Of a DNA stretch of 24,000 bases, positions 1-24,000 are shown piece after piece. A program made the translations under genes and the position numbers. The stretch is taken from the NCBI GenBank assembly GCA_963748415.1, contig CAVVJA010000017.1:28854-52853 (forward strand). The letters run 5' to 3'. The stretch is from an uncultured Actinomycetota bacterium. GTDB taxonomy: Bacteria; Actinomycetota; Actinomycetes; Mycobacteriales; Jatrophihabitantaceae. A model generated the notes under the pieces. It was not told where the DNA came from. It saw only the letters and a list, made by a program, of their open reading frames with translations, and ran no database searches. Every line of letters starts with the position of its first letter. Position 1 is the first letter of the stretch.

Positions 1-354
1 GAGGCGGTCGGCGCGGCCGAGCGTCAGAATTCCCGTCCCGGCCGGCTCGGCGCCGAACGGGCGCTCACGTTCAGCGAGGGCTTGCTGAGCCGACAGGGGT
101 ATGAGCCGGACCGGGTCTCACCGACGCGGGTCTGCCTGCGCAACTGCCCGTTCCATCCCGTCAGTAGGCAGTTCCCAGAAGTCGTGTGCGGGCTCAACCA
201 CTCGTTCCTGACCGGCTTCCTGACCGGCCTGAATGCGCCGACCGTACGCGCGGTCCTGCAACCACGAGCGGGTGAATGTTGCGTCGAACTGCGGTCGGCG
301 ACGGCCGATGACCGGTCGCTAACCGACGTTCCTGCCGGTCCGCCGTCGTCCTGA
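1..354 (+). CDS. C-terminal part of a helix-turn-helix transcriptional regulator (ArsR-like type with a Cys/His-rich C-terminal motif); 5' end lies outside the window
   Basis: Frame 1 is open from base 1 to TGA 352-354. The listed ORF 82..354 carries 'CLRNCPFH...VVCGLNHSFLTGFL', which I recognise from actinobacterial ArsR-type regulators. It converges on the next gene with only 3 nt between the stops (TGAtcaTCA, 352-360). Confidence 0.5.
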   Translation, partial: EAVGAAERQNSRPGRLGAERALTFSEGLLSRQGYEPDRVSPTRVCLRNCPFHPVSRQFPEVVCGLNHSFLTGFLTGLNAPTVRAVLQPRAGECCVELRSATADDRSLTDVPAGPPSS

Positions 355-357
355 TCA

Positions 358-2424
358 TCAGCTACTCCCCAGGTCATAGACGGTCAGACCGCCTACGGAG
401 GTGGCCGTGAAGTTTGACGTCACCCAGTCGGTGATCTCGCTGCTGTTTCCGGCGCCGCCGCCCGGGCCGCCGCCCGCTCCGCCGACAATGAAGAAACGAA
501 TCTCTCCAGCGGCGACGTAGGCCTTGAATTGCGCGAGTGTCGGCGTCGGATCGGATCCACTCCAACCACCGATAGCCATGACGGCTTTGCCACCACTGGC
601 CAATTCGAGGCTGGCCGCACTTTGGTCGCCGACGGTTGCCGCGGCCCAGCGGGTGGAGGTGGTCTTGAGAAGTGCCGCGAGTTCGGTGTTGGACGAGCTC
701 GAAGCTCCCGGACCGGAGCCACCCGAGAACTCGCCTTGTCCTGACTGCAGATCGTTTCCGTTCCCTTGCTGGCTGAATGGGCTTCCGCCGCCCAGCCCAC
801 CGACGCCTGTCGCCGTATTCGACGTCGGTCCCGCGGACGGAATCGAACCAGCATGCGGGCTGGCCGCGGTATCGGCCGCGTACGCCGCCGACCCGCTCCC
901 GAGAGCGAGCAGCCCGGCCAAGCCGGCAACCGCGACGCCGCGCCGGCTGATCAGGTTCGGCGGGACCGCCATGGCCACCGCGGCGACAAGCGATATGACC
1001 AGGAGCGCATAGCGCAGCCAGGGATACCAATTGGCCGCCCGGGTCATCAGCTCGTAGCTCCATACGCCGGTCACCGCCACACCGGCGGCGAGGGTCAGCC
1101 GGGCGCCTATGGACGTACGCCGCCGCCACAGCACGACGGCGCCGATCGCGGCCAGCGCGGCGATAGCCGGAGCGAGTTGCACCGCGTAGTACGGGTGGAT
1201 GATGCCGCTCGCGTAGCTGAATACTCCGGCGGTTACGAGGAGCCAGCCGCCCCACAGCAGTGCTGCGGCACGGGTCCGGTCGGTTCGCGGCGCCCGGCGG
1301 GCGACGACGAACAAGGCGACGACCGCGACCAGCGCTGCCGGGAGGAGCCAAGAGATCTGCGTGCCGAAGTCGGAGTTGAACAACCGGCCGAGCCCGGACG
1401 AGCCGCCGAAGCCGCCTCCGCCACCGGGACCGCCGCCGGCACCGGGACCACCGCCGGCGGCGAGGTCGGCGCGCCCGATTCCGGGAAGCTGACCGGTCGG
1501 GCCGGTGCCGCCACCGCCCTGACTGCCGCCAGGTGCGCTGCCCGCGCCGCCCGTCAGCCGGCTGAGCCCGTTGTAACCCCAGGCCAACCCCCACACCGAG
1601 TTGTTGCCCGAGCCACCGATATAGGGCCGGCTGCTCGCGGGCGTCAACGTCACCGCGAGCATCCACCATCCGGCGCTGACGATCACCGCCGCGCCGGCGA
1701 GGAGCAGGTTGCGAATGCGCCGGCCTACCGTGGTGTTCGCGGCGACGAGGTAGACGATGGCGAGCGCGGGAAGCACGGTGAAGGGCTGCAGGCTCTTCGT
1801 CAGAAAGTCGAATCCCATAGCCGCGCCTGCGAGTACCAGCCAGCGCAACTTGCCGTCGTCGACGGCCCGGGTAACGCCGTAGGCAGCGACGACCAGGAGC
1901 AGCGTCATCAACGCGTCGGGGTTGTTGAAGCGGAACATCAACACGGCGACCGGAGTCACCGCAAGCAAGCCACCTGCGATCAGTCCGGCGGGCGGCCCAA
2001 ACCAGCGTTTGACCGTGAGATAGAGGAGTCCGACCGCCGCGACGCCCATCAGGGCCTGTGGGACGAGCATCGACCAGGAGTTGAATCCAAAGATGCGGCC
2101 GGCGATCTCCATCGGCCACAACGAAGCCGGCGGCTTGTCGACGGTGATGAAGTTGCCGGAGTCCAGCGAGCCGAAGAACATCGCTTTCCAGCTCTTCGTA
2201 CCGGCCTGCACAGCGGCCGCGTAGAACTGGTTGGCGTTCCCCGATGCGCCGAGATTCCAGAGATATAGCAGCGCAGTCCCGGCAAGCAGCGCGAGCACTG
2301 AAGGACGGACCCACGTGGGTTGGCCGACCGGACCTTGCAGAGCCCGGCGCACGCCACTCCGGCTCCGAGGCGCGAATGCCGGTGGGGATGCGTCAGGGCG
2401 AAGGTACGGGTAGGTCGTTGTCAT
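358..2424 (-). CDS. GT39 / ArnT-like (GT-C fold) polyprenol-phosphate-sugar dependent glycosyltransferase, polytopic membrane protein with a C-terminal extracytoplasmic domain
   Basis: Part of ORF 358..2592. N-terminal region 'FYAAAVQAGTKSWKAMFFGSLDSGNFITVDKPPASLWPMEIAGRIFGFNSWSMLVPQAL' plus many TM segments is typical of PMT_2/ArnT-like GT39 proteins. The C-terminus 'IGGWSGSDPTPTLAQFKAYVAAGEIRFFIV...TVYDL' matches the tail common in actinobacterial homologues. I chose the internal ATG at 2424-2422 (MTTTYPYL) because it forms an ATGA overlap with the upstream stop (2421-2424 = tcat on the plus strand). Confidence 0.85.
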   Translation of the reverse strand: MTTTYPYLRPDASPPAFAPRSRSGVRRALQGPVGQPTWVRPSVLALLAGTALLYLWNLGASGNANQFYAAAVQAGTKSWKAMFFGSLDSGNFITVDKPPASLWPMEIAGRIFGFNSWSMLVPQALMGVAAVGLLYLTVKRWFGPPAGLIAGGLLAVTPVAVLMFRFNNPDALMTLLLVVAAYGVTRAVDDGKLRWLVLAGAAMGFDFLTKSLQPFTVLPALAIVYLVAANTTVGRRIRNLLLAGAAVIVSAGWWMLAVTLTPASSRPYIGGSGNNSVWGLAWGYNGLSRLTGGAGSAPGGSQGGGGTGPTGQLPGIGRADLAAGGGPGAGGGPGGGGGFGGSSGLGRLFNSDFGTQISWLLPAALVAVVALFVVARRAPRTDRTRAAALLWGGWLLVTAGVFSYASGIIHPYYAVQLAPAIAALAAIGAVVLWRRRTSIGARLTLAAGVAVTGVWSYELMTRAANWYPWLRYALLVISLVAAVAMAVPPNLISRRGVAVAGLAGLLALGSGSAAYAADTAASPHAGSIPSAGPTSNTATGVGGLGGGSPFSQQGNGNDLQSGQGEFSGGSGPGASSSSNTELAALLKTTSTRWAAATVGDQSAASLELASGGKAVMAIGGWSGSDPTPTLAQFKAYVAAGEIRFFIVGGAGGGPGGGAGNSSEITDWVTSNFTATSVGGLTVYDLGSS

Positions 2425-3689
2425 GGCAGGGTCTCCACATCCGGTATGGCACGATGCCTGGCTGCTTGGACTGGTTGGCGCGGGGAGAAGACCCACTCGC
2501 GCAGCAGAACGAAGCGGAGCACGGTCGCGGCGAGGTTCGCGAGTAGGAGCACTCCGACCTCGACGAAGCGTGAGGGGTCGGCGCTGATCCACGACAGCAC
2601 AGCGAGCGCCCCACTCGTCACAGCCAGACCAAGTCCGAACACGAGAAGTCCTTGCAGTTGGTGCCGGGCGACGCCTTCGCCCCGCACCCCGAAGGTGAAT
2701 CGTCGGTTGGCGGCCGTATTCGCCACCGCAGTGACGAGGAGTGCGACCAGGTTGGCGAGCTGGGCGCCGAGACCAGCGCGGGACACGACGAACAGAAGCA
2801 GGTAAACGACGGTGCTGACGGCGCCTACGGCGGCGAACCGCAGGATCTGGCGCGCCAGCGATGGCGGCACTCCGGGTAACCCGATCGGTTGTCGGCCGAG
2901 CTGCTGGCGCAAGTCACGCAGGGGGAGGGCGCCGGTGGCGAATGCGCGCCCAACCCGGGCGATTCCTCGCAGGTCAGCGACGGCCGTGGCAACGATGTCG
3001 ACCCGACTGTCCGGGTCATCGACCCAGTCGACCGGCACCTCGTGGATTCGCAGCCCGGCGCGCTCGGCCAAGACGAGCAGCTCCGTGTCGAAGAACCAGT
3101 TCCGGTCGTACACGTAGGGCAACAGAGCACGCGCATGGTCCACGCGCATCGCCTTGAATCCGCACTGCGCGTCGGAGAAGCGGGCCCGAAGCGTGGCATG
3201 CAACAGAAGGTTGTAACCGCGGGAGATGAGTTCCCGCCGCGGGCCGCGAACTACCCGGGCTGTCCGCGACAACCGGGTGCCGATCGCCACGTCACTGTGC
3301 CCCGACATCAAAGGGGCGATCAGTGGAAGAAGGGCCGCGAGATCCGTGGACAGATCGACGTCCATGTAGGCGACGATGCGAGCGTTGCTGGCAGTCCAGA
3401 CGTCATGCAACGCGCGACCGCGACCTTTGGCCGCGACGTGGACGGCTCGCACGTCCGACAGCTCGTCTTCCAGCTGCTGGGCGATGGGCCACGTGCCGTC
3501 GGTGCTGGCGTTATCGGCAATGGTGATCACCGTCGGGAACGGGAACTCGTCGTGGAGGTACGCGTGCAATCGCCGCACGCTCGTCGCGAGGTCTCGCTCC
3601 TCGTTGTAGACCGGGACGACGATCTCGACGTCGGCCGTCCCGGTGTCGGTGGGGAGCACCAGCTGGGCGCTGGCCTCGATGGAGGTCAT
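2421..3689 (-). CDS. GT2 polyprenol-phosphate glycosyltransferase (GtrB / dolichol-P-sugar synthase-like) fused to a C-terminal GtrA-like 4-TM domain
   Basis: Part of ORF 2421..3989. GT2 motifs: 'VPVYNEE', 'DNASTDGT', 'DVDLS' (DxD), 'AQCGFKA'. The C-terminal 'ILRFAAVGAVSTVVYLLLF...NRRFTFG...LLREWVF' is GtrA-like. I chose ATG 3689-3687 (MTSIEAS), which is preceded by GGAG about 8 nt upstream. The longer ORF start would overlap the two upstream genes. Confidence 0.85.
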   Translation of the reverse strand: MTSIEASAQLVLPTDTGTADVEIVVPVYNEERDLATSVRRLHAYLHDEFPFPTVITIADNASTDGTWPIAQQLEDELSDVRAVHVAAKGRGRALHDVWTASNARIVAYMDVDLSTDLAALLPLIAPLMSGHSDVAIGTRLSRTARVVRGPRRELISRGYNLLLHATLRARFSDAQCGFKAMRVDHARALLPYVYDRNWFFDTELLVLAERAGLRIHEVPVDWVDDPDSRVDIVATAVADLRGIARVGRAFATGALPLRDLRQQLGRQPIGLPGVPPSLARQILRFAAVGAVSTVVYLLLFVVSRAGLGAQLANLVALLVTAVANTAANRRFTFGVRGEGVARHQLQGLLVFGLGLAVTSGALAVLSWISADPSRFVEVGVLLLANLAATVLRFVLLREWVFSPRQPVQAARHRAIPDVETLP

Positions 3690-3715
3690 GACGTCGCTCC
3701 GTCCGGAGTGGCGGG

Positions 3716-3916
3716 TTATCTCGGGGATTCGGCTATGCGCAAGGCCAGAGCTGGGCAAGCCGCTACCGTCCGTCGCTCGGCTCGGTCGTCGACCGGAGCA
3801 CCGCGCCGGCCAAGCAGAATGGGAAATCCCCATTCGTCTCGGACGAACTGTTCCGGCAGGAGTTCGGCGCACAGCCCGTGGCCATCGCAGCGCGTCCAGT
3901 CGATCTCGATCGTCAT
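3716..3916 (-). CDS. small ferredoxin (3Fe-4S/4Fe-4S single-cluster type)
   Basis: 66-aa ORF. 'CDGHGLC...' followed by '...ACPALAL' gives the CxxHxxC...CP pattern of small actinobacterial ferredoxins. Its start ATG 3916-3914 overlaps the upstream stop as ATGA (plus strand tcat 3913-3916). Confidence 0.7.
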   Translation of the reverse strand: MTIEIDWTRCDGHGLCAELLPEQFVRDEWGFPILLGRRGAPVDDRAERRTVAACPALALRIAESPR

Positions 3917-5163
3917 CGCGACCCTCCGATCGGAAGCTGACCTCGCACTGGACGCCCGCAGCCGCCTCGCAGATGCGCGGCGATGTCATCCGACAGCGCA
4001 GCTAGTCCGCTGCGGACGAATTGCGCCGCTCCGTCGGGATGCCGGCAGGCGCCGCGCCCGTCGACCAGGTCGGCATGACGGAGCCCCCGGGCGAGGCCGT
4101 TGCGGTCGCCCGACCAGATCGCTCGGACATCGCGAGCAAGGGCCGGCAGGCCGAACAGGCACGGTCCGCACTGCCGCGCGGACTCGGCCGCCAGCCAGTC
4201 GGTCACCCGCACGAGTTCGCCGAGCCCGCACGTCGTGTGATCCAGCACGAGGACGACGCCAGCGCCGAAGCTGCCCCCGGCATGGGCGACGCCCGCTCGA
4301 GATAGCCGCAGCTCGGGGTCGGCGGCCAGCCAGCGTCCGTGGTAGCCGCCCACAACCACCGCCTGCGCCGGCGCAGCGTGACCGGCCTCGAGGAGCACGC
4401 CGAGCGGCGTGCCCAGCGGCACTTCGACGACGCCAGCTCGCGATACGGCGCCGCCGAGCGACAGCAGGGTGCTGCCGGGTTCGGCGAGCGAACCGGTTCC
4501 GCCGTACCGCTGGGGGCCGAGACGCAGCAGCACCGCGAGCTGAGCGAATGTCTCGACGTTGCCGAGGATCGCGCCGAATGAACTGGCGTGGATGCGCCGG
4601 CCAGGGGGAATGGCCGGGCCGCCACGGATGGACCGCATCACGGCACGGGCTTCACCGCTGACAAATCCTCCTGGTACTCGATGGATCCGCACGATGCGTG
4701 CGTCGGAGCGCTCCGCGACGGCGTCGCGGACCGAATCAGCACTCATCGAGTCGTGCACCGCGAGAGTTACGCGGTGGGCACCGAGCGAGCCCGCGAGGCC
4801 CAGCGCCCCGTCCAGCACGAGATGGGGGGAGAAGCGCAGGAGCAGCCGATCCTTGATGCTCGCGGGCTCGCTCTCGCATCCGTTGATAACGACCTCGCGG
4901 CGCGTTTCCGCCGGCAGGGCGCGGATCTTGGCGGCGAGCGGAAAGCCCGCGCCGCCGCGCCCGGCCAACGCGACCCCATCGAGCATGCCCACCAATCGGG
5001 GTAGCTCGACGGCTGGCTGTGGGCCGTGTGTGGCACGATGCGCGCGGTGGTCCAGGCGGTTCAGCCCGCGATCGAGCCCGGCAAGTAGGCGGGGCGCGCC
5101 GATGCTCCACGCGATCGGCTCGGCTGGCGTGGTCGGGGCAGGGCGGATCATGGCAGCGGTCAT
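3913..5163 (-). CDS. NuoF-like NADH-binding flavoprotein (NADH:ubiquinone oxidoreductase subunit F iron-sulfur binding-region family)
   Basis: Part of ORF 3913..5373. Motifs: 'GRGGAGFPLAAK' (NuoF FMN/NADH glycine motif), 'VVINGCESEPASIKDRLLL', and C-terminal cysteines 'SARQCGPCLFG' plus 'GRGACRHPDG' (N3-type 4Fe-4S ligands). I chose ATG 5163-5161 (MTAAMIRP) because it overlaps the upstream stop as ATGA (5160-5163). Confidence 0.8.
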   Translation of the reverse strand: MTAAMIRPAPTTPAEPIAWSIGAPRLLAGLDRGLNRLDHRAHRATHGPQPAVELPRLVGMLDGVALAGRGGAGFPLAAKIRALPAETRREVVINGCESEPASIKDRLLLRFSPHLVLDGALGLAGSLGAHRVTLAVHDSMSADSVRDAVAERSDARIVRIHRVPGGFVSGEARAVMRSIRGGPAIPPGRRIHASSFGAILGNVETFAQLAVLLRLGPQRYGGTGSLAEPGSTLLSLGGAVSRAGVVEVPLGTPLGVLLEAGHAAPAQAVVVGGYHGRWLAADPELRLSRAGVAHAGGSFGAGVVLVLDHTTCGLGELVRVTDWLAAESARQCGPCLFGLPALARDVRAIWSGDRNGLARGLRHADLVDGRGACRHPDGAAQFVRSGLAALSDDIAAHLRGGCGRPVRGQLPIGGSR

Positions 5164-5735
5164 CGGGTTGCCTCGATCGGGACCATGGCGCGGCGCACGT
5201 AGTCGCGGCGAGCGAGCGAGACGAGGCGGGCCGTGATGGCAGCGAGCACCCCGACCAGGCAGACCAGGAACAACGCGTCGACCCAGCCCTGAACGACATC
5301 GGTGCCCGACTGGAAGCCGTGGATTATCGCGGCAGCCCATCCCAGGTAGGCCAGCGCGTGGAGCCCCCGCCAAACGCGGATGGCCTGCGGCGAACGGGCA
5401 AGTCGCCCTCGGCCGAGGCCGAGTGCGCTCACGGCGAGGAACACGTACGCGGCAACCGAGCCGAACGCCACCGAACCCGGTCGATAACTGGACTGGAAGG
5501 GTATGAGAGCGCCGAGGATGCCGACATGCGCTTTGGCGTCAGCCAGGATCGCCGTGATGTGCACCGCAAGGAGTGCCACCCCTAGGGCGGCAGCTGCGCG
5601 ATGCGCGTACTGGACGACGATCCGCCGCGCCGGGTTCGGGCTCGGCATCGAGACCAACGCCCCGAGCGCGGTCGCCGCGCTGAGCGCCACGAGAGCGGCC
5701 AGGCCGGCCCCGCGAGCGGTATACCAGAGCGTCAT
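5160..5735 (-). CDS. ferric-reductase-like / MsrQ-like transmembrane domain protein (putative di-haem b membrane electron conduit), TM domain only
   Basis: Part of ORF 5160..5771. About 6 hydrophobic helices carry paired histidines ('YAHRAAAALGVALLAVHI', 'GLHALAYLGWAAAIIHGF'), as in ferric-reductase TM domains. I chose ATG 5735-5733 (MTLWYTARG), which overlaps the ApbE stop as ATGA (5732-5735). Confidence 0.65.
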   Translation of the reverse strand: MTLWYTARGAGLAALVALSAATALGALVSMPSPNPARRIVVQYAHRAAAALGVALLAVHITAILADAKAHVGILGALIPFQSSYRPGSVAFGSVAAYVFLAVSALGLGRGRLARSPQAIRVWRGLHALAYLGWAAAIIHGFQSGTDVVQGWVDALFLVCLVGVLAAITARLVSLARRDYVRRAMVPIEATR

Positions 5736-6727
5736 GACAGCGCCGCTTCCAGGCCGACGGTGGGCCACCACGCGGTTGCCACGATGGTGCCGTCGCGAGC
5801 GACGAGCCGGGCGGCAAGCCTACGGGCGGTGAGCCAGTCGAGCGCCGCACCGCCGAGCACGATCGCCGCCGTGCTCGCGGTGTTGGCCGCAAGAGCTGAC
5901 TGGGCGTGCACGGTGACCGTGCGCCATGGTCCGTCGGCGGGCGCGCCGGTCGTGGGATCGACGATGTGGTGCATCGGTTGGCCGGCCCGCGTCCAGCGCC
6001 GGACCGTCGTGGTTGACGTCGCCAGGCCGCCGTGCCGCACGAGGACTAGCTGTCCCGGAGCGCCGGCCCGTTCCGCAACGAGCACATTCCAGCCGGGGGC
6101 ATTGCCATGAACGGCGAGGTCGCCGCCGATCTCCACCAGCACCGCGGTGCGATGACGGCGGGACAGCACAAGGGCGGCGAGGTCGGCCAGGTGAGCCTTG
6201 GCGGTTGCGCCCAGGTCCAGCGCGGTACCGGGCGGCACGGTCAACAGGTCGGCCTCCCGATCCAGAAGCACGTCGTGCCAACCCGCCTGCGGCGCAAGCG
6301 GGTGAACCGGATCGCTCGAATCCGCGACGGCGCGGATGTCCCGGTCGTAGCCGATGCGTCGCATGGCCAGGCCGACCGTCGGATCCACCACGCCACCGGT
6401 GACGGCGGCCGCGTCCAGGGCGACCCGCACGAACTCGACGAGGAGCGCGGGCACCGGCGTCGGCCGACCCGTGTTGGCGTTGGCGCGCGACAAGGCTGAG
6501 TCGGGGCGGAAGCGACTGGCGGTGCGGTCGACGAGGTCGAGCAGTGCGGTGAGATCGCGGGCCGCGGCGTCGCGAGCGGTCGGATCGGCGACGATCAGCC
6601 GCACCATGCAGCTCCACGCCTGTTGGACGTGCGTGCACTGGGCCAGCGTCGTGGCGTCCACATCGGCCGTGCTGGGCGTCCAGGTGGCTGGGCCCGGGCT
6701 GACTGCCGGGTCGAGGGTGCTCGTCAT
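5732..6727 (-). CDS. apbE: FAD:protein FMN transferase (ApbE family)
   Basis: 331-aa ORF. 'DSALSRANA', 'VDPTVG', 'ALDLGATAKAHLADLAA' and 'VEIGGDLAV' resemble conserved ApbE blocks. The start ATG 6727-6725 overlaps the upstream stop as ATGA (6724-6727). Confidence 0.75.
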   Translation of the reverse strand: MTSTLDPAVSPGPATWTPSTADVDATTLAQCTHVQQAWSCMVRLIVADPTARDAAARDLTALLDLVDRTASRFRPDSALSRANANTGRPTPVPALLVEFVRVALDAAAVTGGVVDPTVGLAMRRIGYDRDIRAVADSSDPVHPLAPQAGWHDVLLDREADLLTVPPGTALDLGATAKAHLADLAALVLSRRHRTAVLVEIGGDLAVHGNAPGWNVLVAERAGAPGQLVLVRHGGLATSTTTVRRWTRAGQPMHHIVDPTTGAPADGPWRTVTVHAQSALAANTASTAAIVLGGAALDWLTARRLAARLVARDGTIVATAWWPTVGLEAALS

Positions 6728-7077
6728 GATCCGTTACTCCCTGCTGCTGCAGCATTGCCCTGGTTGGTCGAGCCGATGCCGCTGGTGCTGTTGTCGGACG
6801 ACGCTCCGGGCGTCGGGGTGCTGCTCGCTCCGCTACTCGACGAACCTGGCGTGGTGGTCGTCGCGGACCCGGCGGCGGACCCCGTGGTGGCCGTCGACGT
6901 GGAGCCCGACGTGTCTGCCGAGGCGCCGGTCGCGGCGGAATTGGCAACTCCGGCCACGAGCGTCGCGCCGAGGGCCGCACCCGCCGTCGCGACGCCGGCC
7001 GCCGTGAATGTGGCGCGGCGCAACACGCGATTCGGTCGCTTGGGGGGTGGTGTCGTTGTCATGCGTACGACGATCAC
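6724..7077 (-). CDS. small secreted low-complexity Ser/Thr/Gly/Ala-rich protein with an RR-containing signal peptide; first gene of the operon
   Basis: 117-aa ORF (GTG 7077; alternative ATG 7062). The N-terminus 'KRPNRVLRRATFTAAGVATAGAALGATLVAGVANSAA' looks like a Tat/Sec signal peptide. The remaining ~70 residues are almost only S/T/G/A/P/N and include TGAS (6919-6930) and SGAS (6823-6834). The coding call rests mainly on the ATGA coupling to apbE and the signal-peptide-like start. Confidence 0.5.
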   Translation of the reverse strand: MIVVRMTTTPPPKRPNRVLRRATFTAAGVATAGAALGATLVAGVANSAATGASADTSGSTSTATTGSAAGSATTTTPGSSSSGASSTPTPGASSDNSTSGIGSTNQGNAAAAGSNGS

Positions 7078-7171
7078 CGGGAATGACTCATCGCAGCCTC
7101 AGCCGACCGTCAAGTGCACCTCAAGATCGGTTAGGAGGCGGCTGAACGAGACTGATCTTGTCCATGACCAA

Positions 7172-7218
7172 GATGATCTTTGAGATATGGGCGCTATTGA
7201 GCCTGTTGCAAAATTGCC
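7172..7218. repeat. left terminal inverted repeat of the IS1182-family element
   Basis: Aligned by eye to the reverse complement of 12687-12732. Shared blocks are GATGATCTT, GAG, GAGCCTGTTGC and AATTG, with a 2-nt length difference. Confidence 0.6.
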
Positions 7219-7976
7219 GCGCGCCTCTGCGGGTTGATCTTGGGTGCGCCACGAGCGCAGAGAGGGGTCGCCGTAGGAGATCTCTTGATGCGGTGCTGTG
7301 CAGGTGATGAAGGATTGCTGGCCCTTCGGCGTCGCCCTGCGGGGGGAGGCGTCAAACCGCCTCATGCTGCGTTGGTTGGTGACCGTCGTGGTGAGCGATG
7401 AGGAAAAGGCGCACTTTGATGCGTCAGGTGGGGATCGGGAAGGCGAGCGTGAGCGAACCGCTGAGGACGCGTCGAAACAACTGGATGACATCAAAACCGG
7501 GGAGGCTAAGAGTCTCCGGGATGAGCCTGGCGGGTGCCCGCTGATTGGCCAGGCGGTGTCCGGCGTGAAGGCGGCGCGAGCCCGGTCTGCGGCTCCTGCA
7601 CGGAACGTGGGGTGCGCCGGGATAAACCGGCAGGAGGAAAGGGATGAGAACGCCCGACATCGAAGGAGTAGCGATCCACGATGGCCCCGAGTCATGCGTC
7701 GACGTCCGTGAGGGCGGCGGCGAAGCGTTGACAGGGGTACGTGCAGGCCGAGCTATTGAGCCGCGAAATCACAGTTCGGGGTGCCGACGTCGTCTCACGA
7801 GACGGAAGGCCACATCGCCGGCGGCGTTAGCGCGAGCCGTTTGGTGGACCCCGCGCGGTCTGAGAACCTGGCATGTACGGAGTCCTTCTGCGCGAGAACC
7901 GGGAGGTCCCACTGCTCGCCCGTCCGGATGATCACCGGGCGGGCCGCTCAGGGAAGGCTGAGGCGGTAAGCCTGGG

Positions 7977-9521
7977 ATGAACGAGCGTGGGAAGTCAGAT
8001 GGGCCCGTAGTACCGACGAAGCCGCCGAACAAGGCCGGGGAAGCGGCCGCGGAGGTGGTGGAGGGAAGGCGCCCGGCCGAGGGGAACACGGCCGGCAAAA
8101 CGCATCCCGGACGCAGAGCCGGGCAAGGCGCGCCAAGCGGGCTGGATCGTGTACGTGAAGTAGCACGAACAGACAAGGATGCACGGTTCACGGCGCTGCT
8201 GCACCACGTCAACGTCGACCGTCTGCGGGCGGCCTACCGGGCGATCAGCCCGAAGGCCGCGCCGGGGGTGGACGGGGTGACGTGGGCAGCCTACGGGCAG
8301 GATCTGGAGGACAACCTTCAGGACTTGCACCGGCGGCTGCACGCAGGCAGCTACCGGGCAAGGCCGTCGCGGCGTGTCCTACATCCCGAAGGCGGACGGG
8401 CGGCAGCGGCCGCTCGGCATCGCCACGCTGGAGGACAAGATCGTCCAGCGGGCCGTCGTCGAGGTGCTCAACGCCGTCTACGAGGCGGACTTCCTCGGCT
8501 TCTCTTACGGGTTTAGGCCGGGACGCAACCCGCATGACGCGTTGGATGCGCTCACGGTCGGGATCTAGCGGAAGAAGGTGAACTGGGTGCTCGACGCGGA
8601 CATCCGCGACTTCTTCACCAGGATTGATCATGGCTGGTTGAAGAGGTTCCTCGAGCATCGAATCGCGGACAAGCGGGTCCTGCGGCTGATCGATAAGTGG
8701 CTGAGCGCGGGGGTCATCGAGGATGGGAACTGGTCGGAGACGAGGAGGGAACACCGCAGGGGGCATCGGTATCACCGTTGCTCGCCAACGTGTACCTCCA
8801 CTACGTCTTCGACCTGTGGGCCGAATGGTGGAGACGCCGGCACGCGCGCGGCGACGTGATCATCGTGCGCTGGGCGGACGACTTCATCGTGGGCTTCGAG
8901 CACCAAGATGATGCGAGGCGGTTCCTGAGCGAGCTTCGCGAGCGGTTCGCGAAGTTCGGGCTGGAGCTACATCCGGACAAGACGCGGCTGATCGAGTTCG
9001 GGCGGTTCGCCGCCCAGAATCGGCAGGCGCGGGGCCTCGGGAAACCGGAGACGTTCGACTTCCTGGGCTTCACGCACATCTGCGGGAACACGCGGAACGG
9101 GCGGTTCTGGGTGCGGCGTATCACGATCTCGAAGCGGATGCGGGCAAAGCTGCGAGAGGTCAAGGACGAGCTCAAGCGGCGCCGACATCAGCCCATCCCC
9201 GATCAGGGACGGTGGCTGGCGAGCGTAGTGCGGGGACACCGCACCTACTACGCCGTGCCAGGCAACAGCGAAGCGGTGCCACCTTCCGCACCCAGGTGAC
9301 CAGGCACTGGCACGAGGCGCTGGAGCGCCGCAGTCAGCGCACCGGATGAACTGGGACCGGATGGACCGCCTCGCGACGCGATGGCTGCCGCCCGCCCGCG
9401 TAGTGCACCCTTACCCGAGGCGCGCTTTCGCGTTCGCACCCGAGGCAGGAGCCCAGTGCGGTAGTACCGCACGCTGGGATCTGTGCGGGGGGCCGCCCGC
9501 AAGGGCGGTCCCTACCGCGAT
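7977..9521 (+). pseudogene. group II intron reverse transcriptase/maturase, disrupted (at least 4 frameshifts and 1 in-frame stop)
   Basis: RT sequence is spread over ORFs 7977..8516 ('[33 protein letters not shown]'), 8374..8568 ('[26 protein letters not shown]...[12 protein letters not shown]', ending in TAG 8566-8568), 8578..8859 ('NWVLDADIRDFFTRIDH', same frame as the previous piece), 8697..9299 ('GTPQGASVSPLLANVYLHY...VRWADDFIVGF...LHPDKTRLIEF') and 9346..9609 ('NWDRMDRLATRWLPPARVVHPYP'). Confidence 0.8.
9449..9521 (+). ncRNA. group II intron domains V and VI (inner intron 3' end)
   Basis: DV: GAGCCCAGUGCGG-loop-CCGCACGCUGGGAU with the AGC triad at 9450-9452. DV has a UAGUA-type (non-GNRA) loop. 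DVI: GCGGGGGGCCGCCC-GCAA-GGGCGGUCCC(UA)CCGC, with a bulged branch-point A at 9514. Confidence 0.7.
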
Positions 9522-9747
9522 AAGGCGGGTGCCGACACGGCCGCCGCGTGTTGTGAGGCATGGGGTGGTGAGAGGGAGCGCGTCGTACGGCGGAATCCGG
9601 AGACGCTGAGTACCGTCGCGGCGCCTGCTGGCGGACCGGCTCGTAGTAGCGGTGAAGCCCTGTAATGGGGGTGGAGCGAAGGGGCCGGCTCATCGATGGA
9701 TTTGTTCGCGCGAGCAACCGGGATCGAGAGGTTCTGGGAGGAGACGA

Positions 9748-11019
9748 GTGGGCAGGCCAGGTCAGGCTGAAAAGTCGTTTGATATTCCGAAGCAACTGGT
9801 GTGGGAGGCGTACGAGCGAGTCAAGGCGAACAAGGGTGCCGCCGGGGTGGATGGGCAGTCCATCGCCGGCTTCGAGGCCGATCTGCAGAACAATCTGTAC
9901 AAGATCTGGAATCGGATGTCGTCGGGGACCTACTTTCCGCCTGCGGTGCTGGCAGTGGAGATACCCAAGACCGGTAGCGGTGCGGGCACGAGGGTGCTCG
10001 GGGTGCCGACTGTCGCGGATCGGGTGGCGCAGACGGTGGCGGCGCTGACGCTGGAACCGCGGACGGAGTCGATTTTTCATTCTGACTCCTACGGGTACCG
10101 GCCAGGGCGCAGCGCGCTGGATGCGGTGGCGGTGTGCCGCACGCGGTGCTGGAAGAAGGCGTGGGTCATCGACCTTGATGTGGCCGCGTTCTTCGACAGC
10201 GTGCCGTGGGACCTGATGGTCAAAGCGGTCGAAGCCAACATCACCACCGAGCAGCGTTGGGTGCTGCTGTACGTGAAGCGGTGGCTACAAGCTCCGCTGC
10301 AGTTACCTGACGGCACGGTGCGGCAGCGGGACCGGGGGACCCCACAAGGGTCATCGATCTCGCCCGTACTGGCGAACCTGTTCCTGCATTACGCGTTCGA
10401 TTCGTGGCTAGCGCGCGAGTTCCCAACGGTGGAGTTCGAGCGGTACGCCGACGACGCGGTGGTGCATTGCGTGACCCAGCGGCAGGCACAGCAGGTGCTG
10501 GCCGCGCTCACGGCGAGGATGGCCGACGTCGGGCTGCGGCTGCACCCCGACAAGACCAGGATCGTGTACTGCAAGGACGGAGACCGGCGTCGCGAGCAGC
10601 ATGAGCACACGTCGTTCACCTTCCTCGGGTTCACGTTTACCCTGCGGCAGGCGCGGGGCAAGCACGGGCTGTTCAGCTCGTTCATGCCCGCGGCCAGCCG
10701 ACAGGCCCTCGCCGAGATGGGTCAGCGGGTTCGTCGGTGGCGGCTGCACCGGTGGGTCCAACGGGACCTGGCCGAGATCGCCGCGCAGATCAATCCGATC
10801 GTGGCGGGCTGGATCAACTACTACGGCCGGTTCTACCCGTCGCGGATAGTGCCCCTCCTGCAGCGCATCAACACCTACCTGATGCGCTGGGCAGGCATGA
10901 AATACAAACGGCTGCGGTCCTACAAACGCTTCAAGGCGTGGTGGTTCGGGATCATCGATCGAGACCCCGACCTGTTCGCGCACTGGCGCATGGTTCGCAC
11001 GTTCGCCGGACTGCGATGA
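9748..11019 (+). CDS. group II intron reverse transcriptase/maturase, intact, compact (423 aa), no endonuclease domain
   Basis: Part of ORF 9652..11019. I chose GTG 9748, preceded by GGGAGGAG (9735-9742). Motifs: 'GAAGVDGQS', 'GVPTVADRVAQ', 'SYGYRPGRSALDA', 'GTPQGSSISPVLANLFLHY', 'RYADDAVVHC', 'LHPDKTRIVY', and the maturase/X motif 'IVAGWINYYGRFY'. The protein ends shortly after the X domain. Confidence 0.9.
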   Translation: MGRPGQAEKSFDIPKQLVWEAYERVKANKGAAGVDGQSIAGFEADLQNNLYKIWNRMSSGTYFPPAVLAVEIPKTGSGAGTRVLGVPTVADRVAQTVAALTLEPRTESIFHSDSYGYRPGRSALDAVAVCRTRCWKKAWVIDLDVAAFFDSVPWDLMVKAVEANITTEQRWVLLYVKRWLQAPLQLPDGTVRQRDRGTPQGSSISPVLANLFLHYAFDSWLAREFPTVEFERYADDAVVHCVTQRQAQQVLAALTARMADVGLRLHPDKTRIVYCKDGDRRREQHEHTSFTFLGFTFTLRQARGKHGLFSSFMPAASRQALAEMGQRVRRWRLHRWVQRDLAEIAAQINPIVAGWINYYGRFYPSRIVPLLQRINTYLMRWAGMKYKRLRSYKRFKAWWFGIIDRDPDLFAHWRMVRTFAGLR

Positions 11020-11022
11020 GAA

Positions 11023-11096
11023 GAGCGGAGTGACGGGAGACTGTCACGCTCCGTTCTGTGGGAGCCCGGGGGTGCGATCCCCCCGGGCCACCCGAC
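11023..11096 (+). ncRNA. group II intron domains V and VI (outer intron 3' end)
   Basis: DV: GAGCGGAGUGACGG-GAGA-CUGUCACGCUCCGUUC (34 nt, AGC triad, GNRA loop). DVI: GGGAGCCCGGGGG-UGCGA-(U)CCCCCCGGGCC(A)CCC with a bulged A at 11090, then GAC. Confidence 0.75.
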
Positions 11097-11115
11097 TGTG
11101 GTTGAGGATCGGTGT

Positions 11116-12647
11116 GTGGCGAAGGGGTTTCGGCCGGTGCAGCGGGATCAGGTGTTTCTGTTGCCGCCGGATATGCGGCAGTGGCTGCCGGCTGATCATC
11201 TGGTGTGGTTTGTGTTGGACGCGGTGGCCGGCCTGGATCTGGCGGCGTTTTGGGGGCGACGTCGGCTCGGCGGGGCTGGGCGGGCGGCGTATGACCCGGC
11301 GATGCTGGTCGGCTTGTTGATCTACGGGTACGCGGTTGGGCAGCGGTCGAGTCGGCAGATCGAGCGGCTGTGTCACACCGATGTGGCGTTTCGGGTCGCC
11401 TGCGCGCAGGACGTGCCCGATCATGTGACGATCGCCCGGTTCCGGGCCGAGCACGAGACCGGCCTGGGCGGGTTGTTCGAGCAGGTGTTGATCGTCTGCG
11501 CTCGGGCCGGGATGGGGCGGGTCGGCGCTGTGGCCCTGGACGGCACCAAGATCGCCGCGAACGCTGCGCTGAGCGCCAACCGCGGCGAGTCGGCGCTGCG
11601 GGGGCTCGCCGCTGGCATTCTGGCCGAGGCTGCGGCGGTCGATGCCGCGGAGGATGAGCTGTTCGGGGATCGGCGGGGTGATGAGCTGCCGCCGGAGTTG
11701 GCTGACCCGGACGGGCGGGCGGCGCGGATCCGGCGGTTGCTTGATGACATCGCCGCCGAACGCGAGGCCAAGTCGGCCGACAGCGAACGGACTCGGCGGG
11801 CCGCCGAGCGGGTCGCGCAGGCCCGCGACAGGCTAGCCGACACTCGGGCCGAGGTCGGCCGCCGCAACGCCGAGCGGGCCCGCTGGGAGCAGCTGATCCG
11901 CGCCGGGGGCGGCAAAGGACTACCCGGCCGCGCGGTGCCGGTCGAGCAGCACTACGACGTCCGGGCTGCCGCCGCCCGACTGGCCCACGCGCAGGCGAAT
12001 CTGGCCCGCGCCGTGCACCCGCAATCAGCAGCGCCCGGCACGCCCGGGGAAGCCAAACGCAACCTCACCGACCCCGACTCGCGAATCATGCCCACCCGGC
12101 ACGGCTGGGTGCAGGGCTACAACTGCCAACTGGTGGTCAGCAGCGACTACCTCATCCTGGCCGCCGACCTGCACAACCGCCCCGGTGACGTCACCAGCTA
12201 CCAGCCGGTGATCGACCAGGCCGCCCAGGCCGCCCGCGCGATCCGCCGCGCCACCGGCCGCCGCAGCCGCATCGGCACCGTGCTCGCCGACGCCGGCTAC
12301 GCCAGCACCACCAACCTCACCTGCCCCGGACCGGACCGGCTCATCGCTCTCGGCACCCGACACCACCACCACACCGCCGCCCGCGACAACCCCGCCCACG
12401 GGCAACCACCCCACGACGCCACCCCGTGGCAACGCATGCACCACCGACTACGAACACCCGCCGGCGCCGCCGCTACCGACACCGCGCCGCCATCGTCGAA
12501 CCGGTCCACGCCCACCTCAAAGACCGCCGCGCTCTCCGCGCCTTTGCCCGCCGCGGACTCACCGCCGCCCGCAGCGAATTCCGCTTCGCCGCCGCCGTCA
12601 CCAACCTCCTGCGACTCCGCACCGCCCTCGCCAACACGGCAACATGA
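11116..12647 (+). pseudogene. IS1182-family DDE transposase with one frameshift near the C-terminus
   Basis: ORF 11098..12777 (probable GTG start at 11116, '(M)AKGFRPVQRDQVFLLPPDMRQWLPADHLVWFVLDAV...AYDPAMLVGLLIYGYAVGQRSSRQIERL...ALDGTKIAANA...VLADAGYAS'). It loses the conserved tail around 12461-12475 in a GCC-rich run. The tail 'YRHRAAIVEPVHAHLKDRRALRAFARRGLTAARSEFRFAAAVTNLLRL' continues in ORF 12426..12647. Confidence 0.8.
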
Positions 12648-12686
12648 TCAACAACAGAGTCCCAACCGCCACCGGCACCAACACGC

Positions 12687-12732
12687 AGCCAATTACGCAA
12701 CAGGCTCTATTGGCATTAACTCCAAGATCATC
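12687..12732. repeat. right terminal inverted repeat of the IS1182-family element
   Basis: Its reverse complement aligns with 7172-7218 (see the left IR). It ends about 20 bp downstream of the sensor-kinase stop codon (12752-12754). Confidence 0.6.
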
Positions 12733-12751
12733 CGTGGGGAGCCTCAGGCGA

Positions 12752-14314
12752 CTATGGGGCGCCCAGATAAAGGGTGACTTGCGCGCCGCCGGTTGGTGAG
12801 CTGCCGGTATCCATCCAGCCGCCACTGGCCTGCGCGCACCGGCGCGCGATCGACAACCCCAGGCCACTTGACCCTCGGTCGCTGCGTCCGCGGATCCCCG
12901 CTCCGTCGGGCAACCCGGGACCGGCGTCGCTTACGGTCAGCTCGGTCAGGCCGGACAGACTTGACAACCGCGGGCTGAACGCGGCTGCGCCACCCGACGG
13001 GCCCGGCGCGCTGACCGCACCCTCGGGGCTCAAGACTGCATTGAATCGGGCCGGTCCGGCGGCCGAGCCAGGCGCGAACGGCCGGCCCGCCGGTGCATCC
13101 AACGATGCCGCGGAGTCCGGGCCAACAAAGCCGGTCGGGCCCGCGCCTACCGAGCCGGTCAGGTCCCACGAGGTCGACGGGTTCGGGGATGCCGAGCGCA
13201 GCGACACGGCGAACGGCGTGCCTTCGGGGGTGTGCGCCACGACATTTTCGATCAGCGCGTCGACCGCCGCGGCCAGATCTTCGGCCGATGCGCGGACGAT
13301 GAGCGGACCGTCCGGAAGTGTCAGCGTGCATGCCCGTTCCTGCTCGTCGGTCAGGGCGGACCAGAACGCAACTCGATCGCGCACGACCGCGGTCGCGTCG
13401 GCGGACGGCAACCGGCCTTCTCGTTGCGGCCTCCGGGCGGCATGGATGACGGCAGTCAGGGTTCGCTCGAGGGCGGACGCCTGGGTCGCGATCCGCTCGC
13501 GCTCGGCCGGATCGCGCAGCGACTCCGACTCCAACCGCAGCGCGGTCAGTGGCGTTCGCATCCGGTGAGAGAGGTTCGCGACCGTCTCCCGTTCTTCGGC
13601 GACCAGCTCATCGATCCGGTCGGCGAGCTGGTTGAGCGATGCCCCGACTTCAGCCACCTCACGCGGCCCGTTCGTCGGGGCCCGAGCGGTGACGTCCCCG
13701 GCGGTCAGCAGGTGCGCGGTCTCGGCCGTCTGGACGAGGGGGCGAACGATGCGACGAGTCAGCAACTCGGCGCCGAACACGCTCACCACCAACAGCGCGA
13801 GGCTGCCACCGACGACCAGCATCAACCGCCCGACTTCACCGCTGTGCAAGGCAGCATTCGACACGTAGACCTGCACGAAGTACATGCCGTCGGGCAGCCG
13901 GAGGGCGAGCTCGGCGACCTGGCCACCGGGAATCTGACGTAATTGGGCCTGTTCGCCACCTTCTCCGCCGGGTGGTGGCCGGTTGTTCTCTGTCTCGTTC
14001 GGGGGCGACTCCGCTGGCGAGCCGTGGCCTGGCCCGGCGGCGCCGGGCGGCGCGGTGCCGAGCACGGTCCCGTCGGGCGTGCGCACGCTGGTGCGGCGGT
14101 CCTTGTTCTGCGCGAGCGCCTTCAAGTAGGACTCGATGGCGGCCTGATTGTTGTTCGTGCGAATGGTCAGCGCCACGTTGTTCGCTTGTAACACGGCCGC
14201 GCGCTCCGCGTTCTGGACCACGGAGGAGCGAATGAGCAGCGCCACCGGGATGGCGAACGCCAGGATGACAAGCGTCGTCAGCCCGACGACCAGGGCCATG
14301 ATCTGGCGGCGCAT
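12752..14314 (-). CDS. two-component sensor histidine kinase (2 TM, HAMP, HisKA, HATPase_c with a long low-complexity insertion)
   Basis: 520-aa ORF. TM1 'MALVVGLTTLVILAFAIPVALLI', TM2 'LMLVVGGSLALLVVSVFGAELL', H-box 'NLSHRMRTPLTAL', N-box region 'LIENVVAHTPEGT', G1 'VSDAGPGLP', G2 'GSSGLGLSIA'. ATG 14314 lies 1 nt after the response-regulator stop. Confidence 0.85.
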   Translation of the reverse strand: MRRQIMALVVGLTTLVILAFAIPVALLIRSSVVQNAERAAVLQANNVALTIRTNNNQAAIESYLKALAQNKDRRTSVRTPDGTVLGTAPPGAAGPGHGSPAESPPNETENNRPPPGGEGGEQAQLRQIPGGQVAELALRLPDGMYFVQVYVSNAALHSGEVGRLMLVVGGSLALLVVSVFGAELLTRRIVRPLVQTAETAHLLTAGDVTARAPTNGPREVAEVGASLNQLADRIDELVAEERETVANLSHRMRTPLTALRLESESLRDPAERERIATQASALERTLTAVIHAARRPQREGRLPSADATAVVRDRVAFWSALTDEQERACTLTLPDGPLIVRASAEDLAAAVDALIENVVAHTPEGTPFAVSLRSASPNPSTSWDLTGSVGAGPTGFVGPDSAASLDAPAGRPFAPGSAAGPARFNAVLSPEGAVSAPGPSGGAAAFSPRLSSLSGLTELTVSDAGPGLPDGAGIRGRSDRGSSGLGLSIARRCAQASGGWMDTGSSPTGGAQVTLYLGAP

Positions 14315-14315
14315 A

Positions 14316-15008: not shown

Positions 15009-15019
15009 GGGAGCGAAGG

Positions 15020-15385: not shown

Positions 15386-15409
15386 GGCTTCAGCCTAGGC
15401 TTGCTTGCT

Positions 15410-22735: not shown

Positions 22736-24000
<1,265 letters not shown>

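Follow-up and report, generated by a model that had tools for sequence, protein, structure and literature searches.

Seven co-directional genes, hereafter called genes 1 to 7, lie on the minus strand at one end of a 24,000-nucleotide stretch of DNA (hereafter the window) from an uncultured Actinomycetota bacterium of the Jatrophihabitantaceae (GenBank assembly GCA_963748415.1, contig CAVVJA010000017.1, positions 28,854 to 52,853). Judged from their sequences, genes 1 to 5 probably form a self-contained module which would export electrons from NAD(P)H across the membrane, with genes 6 and 7 as a lineage-specific, co-transcribed extension for glycosylation. The five-gene core is widespread in actinobacteria, and the glycosyltransferase (GT) genes are a clade-level extension of the operon which recurs loosely elsewhere. 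Covalent flavinylation by ApbE, the enzyme encoded by gene 2, is a major bacterial route by which cytoplasmic reductant is wired to extracellular chemistry. The most interesting element of the operon is not the combination of seven genes but the pairing of a small, domain-less protein (gene 1), which ends in a motif resembling an ApbE target site, with an ApbE that has no signal peptide.

Operon layout and the five-gene core

The window consists of high-GC DNA (66-73 %). Open reading frames (ORFs) and their translations confirmed the seven genes described in the first-pass annotation, which had been made from the sequence alone (Table 1); gene 5 was absent from the ORF list and was confirmed by translation. 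Inspection of the sequence also confirmed that the plus-strand tetranucleotide TCAT is present at 6724-6727, 5732-5735, 5160-5163, 3913-3916 and 2421-2424, each site combining the stop codon of an ORF with the ATG of the following one (a 4-nt ATGA overlap), and that genes 5 and 6 are separated by a short gap with GGAG 9-12 nt ahead of the ATG of gene 6 (3689). Overlaps of 4 nt are found at matching junctions in related genomes (L081, L082, L084-L086; loci and genomes are cited here by L numbers), while the gene 5/gene 6 junction is in relatives either a 4-nt overlap (L081, L086, L088) or a gap of 9-25 nt (L083-L085, L087). A scan of window positions 1-7800 for promoters and terminators gave nothing above shuffled sequences, and upstream of the operon Rfam models matched group II intron domains but no riboswitch. 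As had been proposed, the seven genes make up a single, tightly coupled unit of transcription and translation in this window.

Species-representative genomes searched with a NuoF-like profile (gene 4) gave at least 492 relatives, and the 80 best loci were taken with flanks of 10 kb. These 80 loci share 39-91 % identity in the NuoF-like protein and all belong to Actinomycetota, including Acidimicrobiia. Neighbours were counted with tblastn, using the seven window proteins over the 80 loci; a GC3-based gene caller under-called genes (ApbE in 40 of 80) and was used only to rank neighbours. The gene for the transmembrane (TM) protein, gene 3, stands directly upstream of the NuoF-like gene in 79 of the 80 loci, and the ferredoxin gene directly downstream in 79. 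ApbE is encoded upstream on the same strand in 57 loci and anywhere in the locus in 59, and the order ApbE-TM-NuoF-ferredoxin is seen in most of the 80 species-level genomes. The module spans Streptomyces, Mycobacterium, Nocardia, Amycolatopsis and Acidimicrobiia.

The GT genes are distributed differently. The pair follows the ferredoxin gene directly in 5 of the 80 loci (L001, L002, L003, L012 and L021), all from Jatrophihabitantaceae-type metagenome-assembled genomes (MAGs) related to the window organism, L001 being 91 % identical. Homologues of gene 6 occur in 9 loci and of gene 7 in 12, and any GT gene lies within 10 kb in 12. A two-component system, i.e. an OmpR-type regulator or a HAMP kinase, is present within 5.5 kb in 37 loci, located upstream of, downstream of or divergent from the module (e.g. 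L081 5301-7329, L054 12117-14200 and L077 11544-13700). ORF clustering makes it the commonest accessory neighbour, far ahead of the GT genes; no named NCBIfam equivalog matched its proteins. Because of these counts, the conserved unit is taken to be genes 1 to 5, often with a two-component system, and the idea that the seven genes constitute one conserved system is not upheld.

The window proteins were scanned against the hidden Markov models (HMMs) of Pfam and NCBIfam and then against solved structures. The first-pass labels ApbE, NuoF-like protein and ferredoxin were confirmed by HMM, as were a GT2-GtrA fusion for gene 6 and a GT-C glycosyltransferase, of PMT_2/YkcB type, for gene 7. The description of gene 3 as ferric-reductase-like fared less simply. 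The window protein has no Pfam match, nor any match to PF01794 even at E ≤ 10, and the label stands by way of its homologues, its conserved histidines and a fold search. Homologues are annotated in their sources as YedZ/MsrQ or ferric reductase, one of them carrying PF01794, and the proteins encoded at this point of the operon in L043, L080 and L032 reach PF01794 scores of 32-44 bits (gathering cut-off 28). Four histidines (His45, His59, His126 and His139, set 14 and 13 residues apart) are shared without exception by 43 sequences, and both pairs, His45/His59 and His126/His139, sit on long helices of the AlphaFold2 (AF2) model, which has five membrane-length helices (pLDDT 86.5). The top Foldseek matches in the PDB were STEAP2, DUOX1, the NOX5 TM domain and STEAP1 (TM-score about 0.5, probability 0.94-1.0). 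Sequence and model together support membership of gene 3 in the ferric-reductase-domain superfamily. The Arg-rich loops 1 and 3 and C-tail would place the N-terminus outside and the C-terminus inside, with His45 and His126 on the cytoplasmic side and His59 and His139 on the outside.

TM proteins with five helices (class A) have a near-invariant outer loop, H-G-[FL]-x-[ST]-G-[ST]-D, right after the outer-haem His; the window copy reads HGFQSGTD (gene 3 residues 139-146). A six-helix class (class B) has H-G-L-x-x-G-R-P in its place. The HGFxSGTD loop is a candidate docking site for a tethered flavin. A second architecture, found among others in a Streptomyces subgroup next to leuS and in Dactylosporangium and Catenuloplanes, is marked by a TM protein with one helix more at its N-terminus and a cytoplasmic tail of 300-500 residues, charged or rich in Pro and Tyr; in the latter two genera this tail ends in a conserved FWxxxRGEA[RK]. 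These loci lack ApbE and gene 1 (Table 1), whereas, with the exception of L022 and L043, every locus with a five-helix TM protein also has a gene 1-like ORF. From this complementarity, a topological argument, the gene 1 helix may act in trans as the missing sixth one. An HMM of the gene 1 N-terminus gave no match to the additional helix with which the long TM proteins begin.

Gene 4 falls far below the NuoF equivalog (133.5 bits, cut-off 558.65 for TIGR01959), and its best solved match is NuoF of M. smegmatis (8e9g_F, E 7e-31). It keeps the GRGGAGFP and ESEP motifs. At residues 329-338 the SCGKCTPC of NuoF has become SARQCGPC, in which the first of the four Cys residues of the N3 motif is replaced by Ala, a loss shared across the NuoF-like family; the family alignment also shows invariant Cys312 and Cys402, both present in mycobacterial NuoF. 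The ferredoxin encoded by gene 5 has homologues with exactly three Cys residues in 76 of 79 cases, with H, R, Y or F but never Cys at the middle position and with CP always retained. The pattern CxxXxxC...CP is one which we take to be the 3Fe-4S pattern of actinomycete ferredoxins.

The gene 1 family and ApbE

The predicted protein of gene 1 has an N-terminal RRATF, one Ala/Gly-rich hydrophobic helix, a low-complexity linker rich in Ser, Thr and Gly, and the C-terminus AAGSNGS followed directly by the stop codon. It has no match in Pfam or NCBIfam. As a new result of sequence comparison, it belongs to a conserved family: a comparable small ORF directly upstream of ApbE, ending at the ApbE start, is found in more than 40 loci from many orders. 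Members have a basic N-terminus, usually with G-[LM]-R-R, and a single hydrophobic helix rich in Ala and Gly. Their linkers differ greatly in length and composition (S/T/G-rich, P/A-rich or E/K-rich) and are followed by a C-terminal motif, [QHD]-x-x-[ST]-[G/S/N/H]-[G/A]-S-stop, resembling ApbE sites. Public gene callers have called a small domain-less gene at this position in L081, L082, L084 and L085. An HMM of the 37-residue N-terminal segment retrieved only family members (E down to 3e-14) among 1279 neighbourhood ORFs. Genes of this kind occur only with the module, and their stop codon usually overlaps the ApbE start.

The family statistics rest on a manually assembled set of 42 members, which was used instead of an automatic signature scan that proved too strict (22 ApbE-positive loci were missed). 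Counted from the stop codon, position -1 is Ser in 37 members, position -2 is Gly in 31 and Ala in 8, position -3 is Gly in 22, with N or H in the clade of the window, position -4 is Ser in 23 and Thr in 15, and position -7 is Gln, His or Asp, as in DxxSGAT. The loose motif [ST][GSNH][GAS]S$ is present in 34 of 42 tails compared with 1.2 expected from shuffles (maximum 7 in 2000), and the strict motif [ST]G[AG][ST]$ stands at the exact C-terminus of 19 compared with 0.23 expected from shuffled tails. The first-pass suggestion that the gene 1 protein is a target of flavinylation thus receives direct support from the conserved C-terminal motif of its family, which resembles an ApbE site.

The gene 1 tail is conserved at the protein level. 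Its codons vary synonymously (TCA 22, TCG 11 and TCC 5 for Ser at position -1; AGY, TCN and ACN at position -4), and the motif is kept across ATGA, GTGA and non-overlapping junctions with ApbE (e.g. TCC TGA n ATG). It also persists where no ApbE gene follows and the next gene encodes the TM protein (L032, L071, L080, L067); it is therefore no by-product of an ApbE ribosome-binding site. The synonymous codons, the non-overlapping junctions and the loci lacking ApbE together rule out that the tail is an artefact of that site or of the ATGA overlap.

At the N-terminus, Arg-Arg occurs within the first 45 residues in 32 of the 42 members and the G-[LM]-R-R core is conserved, a feature compatible with twin-arginine (Tat) export as far as sequence can tell. 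The window protein has L-R-R-A-T-F, compared with the Tat consensus S/T-R-R-x-F-L-K, which precedes an h-region of weak hydrophobicity and an AxA site, and its features would fit an N-in membrane anchor equally well.

The ApbE encoded by gene 2 matches the solved FMN transferases 1vrm, 4xgw and 4xdt and retains the HHIxDPxTG stretch. It has no signal peptide, no lipobox and no hydrophobic N-terminus, and an upstream extension is impossible, with an in-frame stop two codons before the ATG. Its homologues likewise have no hydrophobic N-terminus and start 10-25 residues before the first conserved strand. The apbE stop codon overlaps the start of the TM gene in the same cluster. This lack of a signal peptide is a new point of the present analysis. 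It bears on a premise of the first-pass annotation, that ApbE flavinylates extracytoplasmic proteins, which cannot be applied directly here and calls for an additional step, such as export after flavinylation. Since ApbE has no export signal, flavinylation would most likely be cytoplasmic, where FAD is available, and precede translocation of the tail; a cytoplasmic ApbE and a tail located outside can be reconciled in this way. Separately, a second, divergent pair of ApbE and MsrQ-like TM protein is encoded in L028 (4317-5527, minus strand), on the strand opposite to the main module and about 3 kb upstream of it.

Glycosyltransferase genes and flanking DNA

Gene 6 codes for a GT2 synthase fused to a four-helix domain of GtrA/DPMS type. 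Its NCBIfam matches (AglJ, PpgS, ArnC and Dol-P-hexose transferases) are weak and all below cut-off, and its best solved relatives are the DPMS of P. furiosus (5mlz, 1.4e-9) and ArnC (9hwj). The sole solved match of gene 7 is ArnT (5ezm, 1.7e-9). Gene 7 had been labelled GT39; a scan reporting up to E = 0.01 gave PMT_2 and YkcB_C only, with no PF02366, which occurs alongside PMT_2 in some of its relatives. From the HMM and structure matches, the pair is therefore taken to be a polyprenyl-phosphate sugar synthase and a GT-C enzyme, and gene 7 not a GT39 member.

The order of seven or eight genes is also found in L081, L083 and L084 (Jatrophihabitans endophyticus). The close relative L082 has gene 1-ApbE-TM-NuoF-ferredoxin followed directly by ccsA, without GT genes. 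In a reverse look-up, all four close gene 6 homologues on long contigs, picked blind to their context, stood directly after a ferredoxin gene; this sampled only the clade of the window, the best 120 gene 6 homologues being all 68-96 % identical. The adjacency of the GT genes had been held to be non-accidental, and it is indeed not unique to one strain, holding across the clade. Outside the clade, GT homologues of 63-67 % identity are found near the module in other arrangements: divergent and beyond the kinase in Amycolatopsis (L033/L038), beyond a divergent two-component system in Nanopelagicales (L077) and interleaved in Acidimicrobiales (L067). The left edge of the window (1-357) has no similarity to a second GT-C paralogue of the kind present in L001. 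The Ser plus Thr fraction of the gene 1 linker is higher near GT genes (means of 0.50 and 0.43) than elsewhere (0.31), with p = 0.003 in a one-sided Mann-Whitney test (n = 11 vs 30) uncorrected for phylogeny.

In relatives, a two-component system is encoded directly upstream of gene 1. In the window, a mobile-element block which is not part of the system lies between the kinase and gene 1 (Table 1); it looks like two introns, nested or in tandem. The block is absent from this position in L001, L082 and L084-L086, and relatives have only 40-130 nt there. L087 has a different insertion sequence (IS) at the same position (IS1595, DUF222), which suggests a hot spot of insertion. Insertions between the kinase and gene 1 may uncouple the operon from its regulator.

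Across the clade, the locus has menaquinone genes (ubiD/ubiA/ubiX, mqn) on one side and the cytochrome c maturation genes ccsA-resB-ccdA-resA on the other. The rest of the window holds genes of futalosine/menaquinone type (18504-19649, 22973-23812), coding for an MqnC/CofH-like radical SAM protein, a PF02621 protein of MqnA type and UbiD/UbiA/UbiX. At 14278-17821, the response regulator, UbiD and UbiA match their homologues in pieces across frames, with the seven-gene operon intact, and the same fragmentation is seen in the related MFD MAGs L012 and L021; these are either indel errors of long-read MAGs or real pseudogenes. A small PLDc_N membrane protein is encoded beside the regulator (15020-15385, minus strand), as in L083 and L085.

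Table 1 Features of the window and coordinates of the loci with the second TM architecture
Feature	Coordinates	Strand	Details
Seven-gene operon	358-7077	-	ORFs run from 7077 to 358, co-directional
Gene 1	6724-7077	-	117 amino acids from GTG 7077, or 112 from ATG 7062
Gene 1, last seven codons (AAGSNGS)	6727-6747	-	clade variant of the family motif; proposed FMN attachment site
Gene 2, ApbE-family FAD:protein FMN transferase	5732-6727	-	331 amino acids; PF02424, E 1.5e-47
Gene 3, five-helix membrane protein	5160-5735	-	191 amino acids; divergent di-haem b cytochrome of MsrQ/ferric-reductase type (assignment from sequence and model)
Gene 4, NuoF-like NAD(P)H-binding flavoprotein	3913-5163	-	416 amino acids; PF01512, 5e-30, and PF10589, 2e-10; C-terminal Fe-S region
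Gene 5, single-cluster ferredoxin	3716-3916	-	66 amino acids; PF13459, E 9e-12; CxxHxxC...CP
Intergenic gap, gene 5/gene 6	3690-3715	-	26 nt, CCCGCCACTCCGGACGGAGCGACGTC; sole non-overlapping junction
Gene 6, GT2 fused to GtrA/DPMS-type four-helix domain	2421-3689	-	422 amino acids; PF00535 and PF04138
Gene 7, GT-C glycosyltransferase	358-2424	-	688 amino acids; PF13231 (PMT_2), 8e-32, and PF24878 (YkcB_C), 1e-26; Gly-rich insert
Mobile-element block	7250-12777	+	between kinase and gene 1; outside the system
Group II intron RNA domains	RF01999 7309-7429; RF02005 7647-7868; RF00029 11021-11096		Rfam
Reverse transcriptase, fragmented	7977-9299		RVT_1/GIIM
Reverse transcriptase/maturase, intact	9652-11019		RVT_1/GIIM
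IS transposase	11098-12777		DUF772/DDE
HAMP histidine kinase	12752-14314	-	two-component system directly upstream of gene 1 in relatives
OmpR-type response regulator	about 14278-15008	-	split over two frames
Second-architecture loci	L007-L011, L013-L020, L024, L025 (about 8300-10000 each)		TM protein, then NuoF-like protein and ferredoxin; without ApbE and gene 1 homologue

Proposed electron route, alternatives and known systems

From these components we infer the following route. NAD(P)H would be oxidised at the FMN of the NuoF-like protein, and the electrons would pass from its C-terminal Fe-S site to the three-Cys ferredoxin, from there to the cytoplasmic-side haem b (His45/His126) of the MsrQ-like protein and on to the outer haem (His59/His139), and then to an FMN esterified by ApbE to the C-terminal Ser of the gene 1 protein, which would deliver them to an acceptor. 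The N-terminus of the gene 1 protein, with its Arg-Arg and helix, would act as a membrane anchor or a Tat-type signal, and its disordered linker would give the flavin access to envelope acceptors. Since the protein has no folded domain, the flavin would presumably find its pocket on the outer face of the haem protein. Regulation of the module probably falls to the upstream two-component system. The redox logic of the first-pass annotation, from a cytoplasmic NuoF-like protein and ferredoxin over a haem conduit to a flavinylated acceptor, fits the domains and conserved residues. In its most extended form, the proposal makes the gene 1 family a new class of ApbE substrate: domain-less, with FMN on the C-terminal Ser, flavinylated in the cytoplasm and exported by the twin-arginine route, a 'flavin on a leash' of 50-150 disordered linker residues which docks on the outer haem and could extend to acceptors in the wall, its own helix being perhaps the missing sixth one, and the leash being O-glycosylated by the GTs of the operon in the clade of the window. 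With all these parts together, the proposal is put forward tentatively and is, on balance, doubtful.

Several points weigh against the route. About 20 loci have TM-NuoF-ferredoxin without ApbE or a gene 1 homologue, and the core can therefore do without the flavin tether. Loss of the first N3 Cys makes the Fe-S content of the NuoF-like protein uncertain, and the Foldseek E-values for gene 3 are weak (0.07-0.5). The S-N-G-S tail of the window protein is a clade variant off the strict [S/T]GA[S/T], the whole clade having N or H where others have G, and the hydrophobicity of the gene 1 helix is ambiguous between a Tat signal and an anchor. The action of a cytoplasmic ApbE on a tail which ends outside requires an unproven step of export after modification. 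To our knowledge, all proven ApbE substrates have a folded flavin-binding domain, and the gene 1 protein has none.

The deviating tail, S-[NH]-G-S in the clade of the window, could also mean that the gene 1 tail is not the flavinylation site at all, and that ApbE modifies another protein, e.g. the TM protein at the S-G-T-D of the outer loop after His139, or a product encoded elsewhere, gene 1 being only a small membrane subunit or a signal-anchored spacer. The nearly invariant HGFxSGTD loop would fit this, as would the strongly conserved N-terminal segment of gene 1, expected of a structural subunit, and the window protein has strict TGAS and SGAS 4-mers internally, at residues 45 and 77, which may be there by chance or be real sites. 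However, the third position of the loop motif is not always Ser or Thr (SGDD in L071; GRP in class B), whereas the gene 1 tail is conserved as protein, at the exact C-terminus and in distant orders, in genes which are tied to the module and commonly overlap ApbE. Modification of a protein other than gene 1 is considered improbable.

As to genes 6 and 7, the first-pass annotation had suggested a possibly O-glycosylated acceptor. Glycosylation of the tether is plausible from the sequences, and the correlation of linker Ser/Thr content with GT proximity (uncorrected p = 0.003) indicates it weakly. If all seven genes worked together, the DPMS-like synthase and the GT-C enzyme would O-glycosylate the Ser/Thr linker of gene 1 outside the membrane, making the flavin tether a glycoprotein which would resist proteases or be anchored to the wall. 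The GT genes are indeed inside the operon across a clade (the window, L001-L003, L012, L021, L081 and L083-L088) in which the NuoF-like protein has diverged to 56-64 % identity; the ferredoxin/GT2 overlap in three of these genomes, the four of four blind-chosen gene 6 homologues, the rearranged GT genes within 10 kb in other orders and the richer linkers point in the same direction. Against a joint function, 68 of 80 loci have no GT within 10 kb, many of them with equally Ser-rich linkers (L027, L029, L050), L082 keeps the operon with ccsA directly after ferredoxin, gene 7 is ArnT/YkcB-like and not a GT39 protein mannosyltransferase, and the linker correlation takes no account of phylogeny. 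Moreover, the GT2-GtrA protein is conserved across orders (63-67 %) far above the redox proteins (40-47 %) or the hypervariable linker, and is therefore a better fit to a fixed envelope substrate. Joint function of all seven genes in this form is rather unlikely. The same high conservation agrees with the GT genes being unrelated passengers, a general envelope glycosylation unit placed beside the redox module by local synteny, perhaps with shared regulation and read-through transcription. The clade order ubiX-ubiA-ubiD, regulator-kinase, operon, ccsA-resB-ccdA-resA is constant. The GT block behaves as a presence/absence cassette between ferredoxin and ccsA: L082 lacks it, and in L083 and L087 it precedes other genes. 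Some genomes have one GT-C paralogue and others two. The 4-nt stop/start overlaps which link ferredoxin to GT2 in several genomes are, however, unusual for pure passengers, as is a link which survives deep divergence, with GT proximity recurring in unrelated orders outside the synteny block. That the GT genes are passengers is a real possibility, somewhat short of an even chance.

For the module of genes 1 to 5 as the preferred reading, the consequences would be several. If the small tail-motif protein is the substrate, a class of orphan apbE genes would be removed and ApbE would be shown able to modify a domain-less peptide, and the question would arise how a flavin attached in the cytoplasm gets outside. 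If the reading is true, the module would be a candidate for an extracellular reductase driven by NAD(P)H in Gram-positive soil bacteria. A redox shuttle protein tailored by operon-encoded, lipid-linked glycosylation would be a first, should the link to the GT genes be real.

The first-pass annotation knew of no characterised system with this combination. This holds experimentally and is overstated bioinformatically: Méheust et al. (2021, eLife, PMC8238504) have catalogued, by bioinformatics, MsrQ-like flavinylation clusters in Actinobacteria, of which 31 include a NuoF-like gene. A literature search for a substrate of the gene 1 type, a NuoF-like/ApbE system, or a cytoplasmic ApbE combined with Tat export gave nothing beyond that study and PMC11334425. 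The present module has in common with the MsrQ-like clusters the presence of apbE, a two-haem membrane protein (of PF01794 type there) and a NuoF-like protein (PF10589) in one cluster, as well as the proposal that electrons from NAD(P)H in the cytosol end up on a flavinylated acceptor outside it (PMC8238504). It differs in that none of the seven operon proteins has an FMN-binding domain (PF04205), a domain-less tail-motif protein being found instead, in that the window ApbE is without signal peptide or lipobox, and in that the window TM protein itself is below the PF01794 threshold. The description of the MsrQ-like clusters mentions no ferredoxin, two-component system or GT genes (PMC8238504). 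About 4 % of the genomes with apbE were left as 'orphans' without a known substrate in that study, whose filter removed proteins without signal peptide or lipobox (PMC8238504); this filter may explain the absence of the gene 1 type of substrate from it.

As in E. coli MsrPQ (YedYZ) and the NOX and STEAP proteins, His pairs spaced by 13-14 residues would hold two b haems between two helices, for electron transport across the membrane. Unlike the six-helix core of these proteins, gene 3 has five helices in the AF2 model, and its donor would be a separate NuoF-like protein with ferredoxin rather than a fused FAD/NADPH domain, quinol or Fre. In contrast to MsrPQ, no MsrP-type molybdoenzyme is present in the neighbourhoods with Pfam-annotated neighbours. 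Gene 4 resembles the complex I subunit NuoF (51 kDa) in its FMN- and NADH-binding motifs and its C-terminal Fe-S region, but is without NuoE or NuoG neighbours and is partnered with the small three-Cys ferredoxin.

Genes 6 and 7 follow the scheme of DPMS/PMT, ArnC/ArnT, GtrB-GtrA-GtrX, B. subtilis CsbB-GtcA-YfhO and YkcC-YkcB, in which a GT2 synthase and a GtrA/DPMS domain are combined with a GT-C enzyme acting outside; the synthase of gene 6 is fused to its GtrA-type domain, as in archaeal DPMS. Unlike known polyprenyl-phosphate-sugar pairs, they are embedded in a redox operon, for which there was no precedent in the literature searched.

The closest parallel to the gene 1 tail is found in the FMN_red proteins. 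ApbE targets an [S/T]GA[S/T]-like motif, the last residue of which accepts FMN (PMC11334425), and experiments on FMN_red proteins have shown that their unstructured C-terminal extension is flavinylated (Huang et al. 2024, mSystems, PMC11334425). Both groups have an [S/T]GA[S/T]-like motif on a disordered C-terminal stretch and are encoded beside apbE. The FMN_red proteins, from Firmicutes, have a folded flavin-binding domain on which the tail folds back, whereas the gene 1 family is actinobacterial and domain-less, and carries the motif at its very C-terminus.

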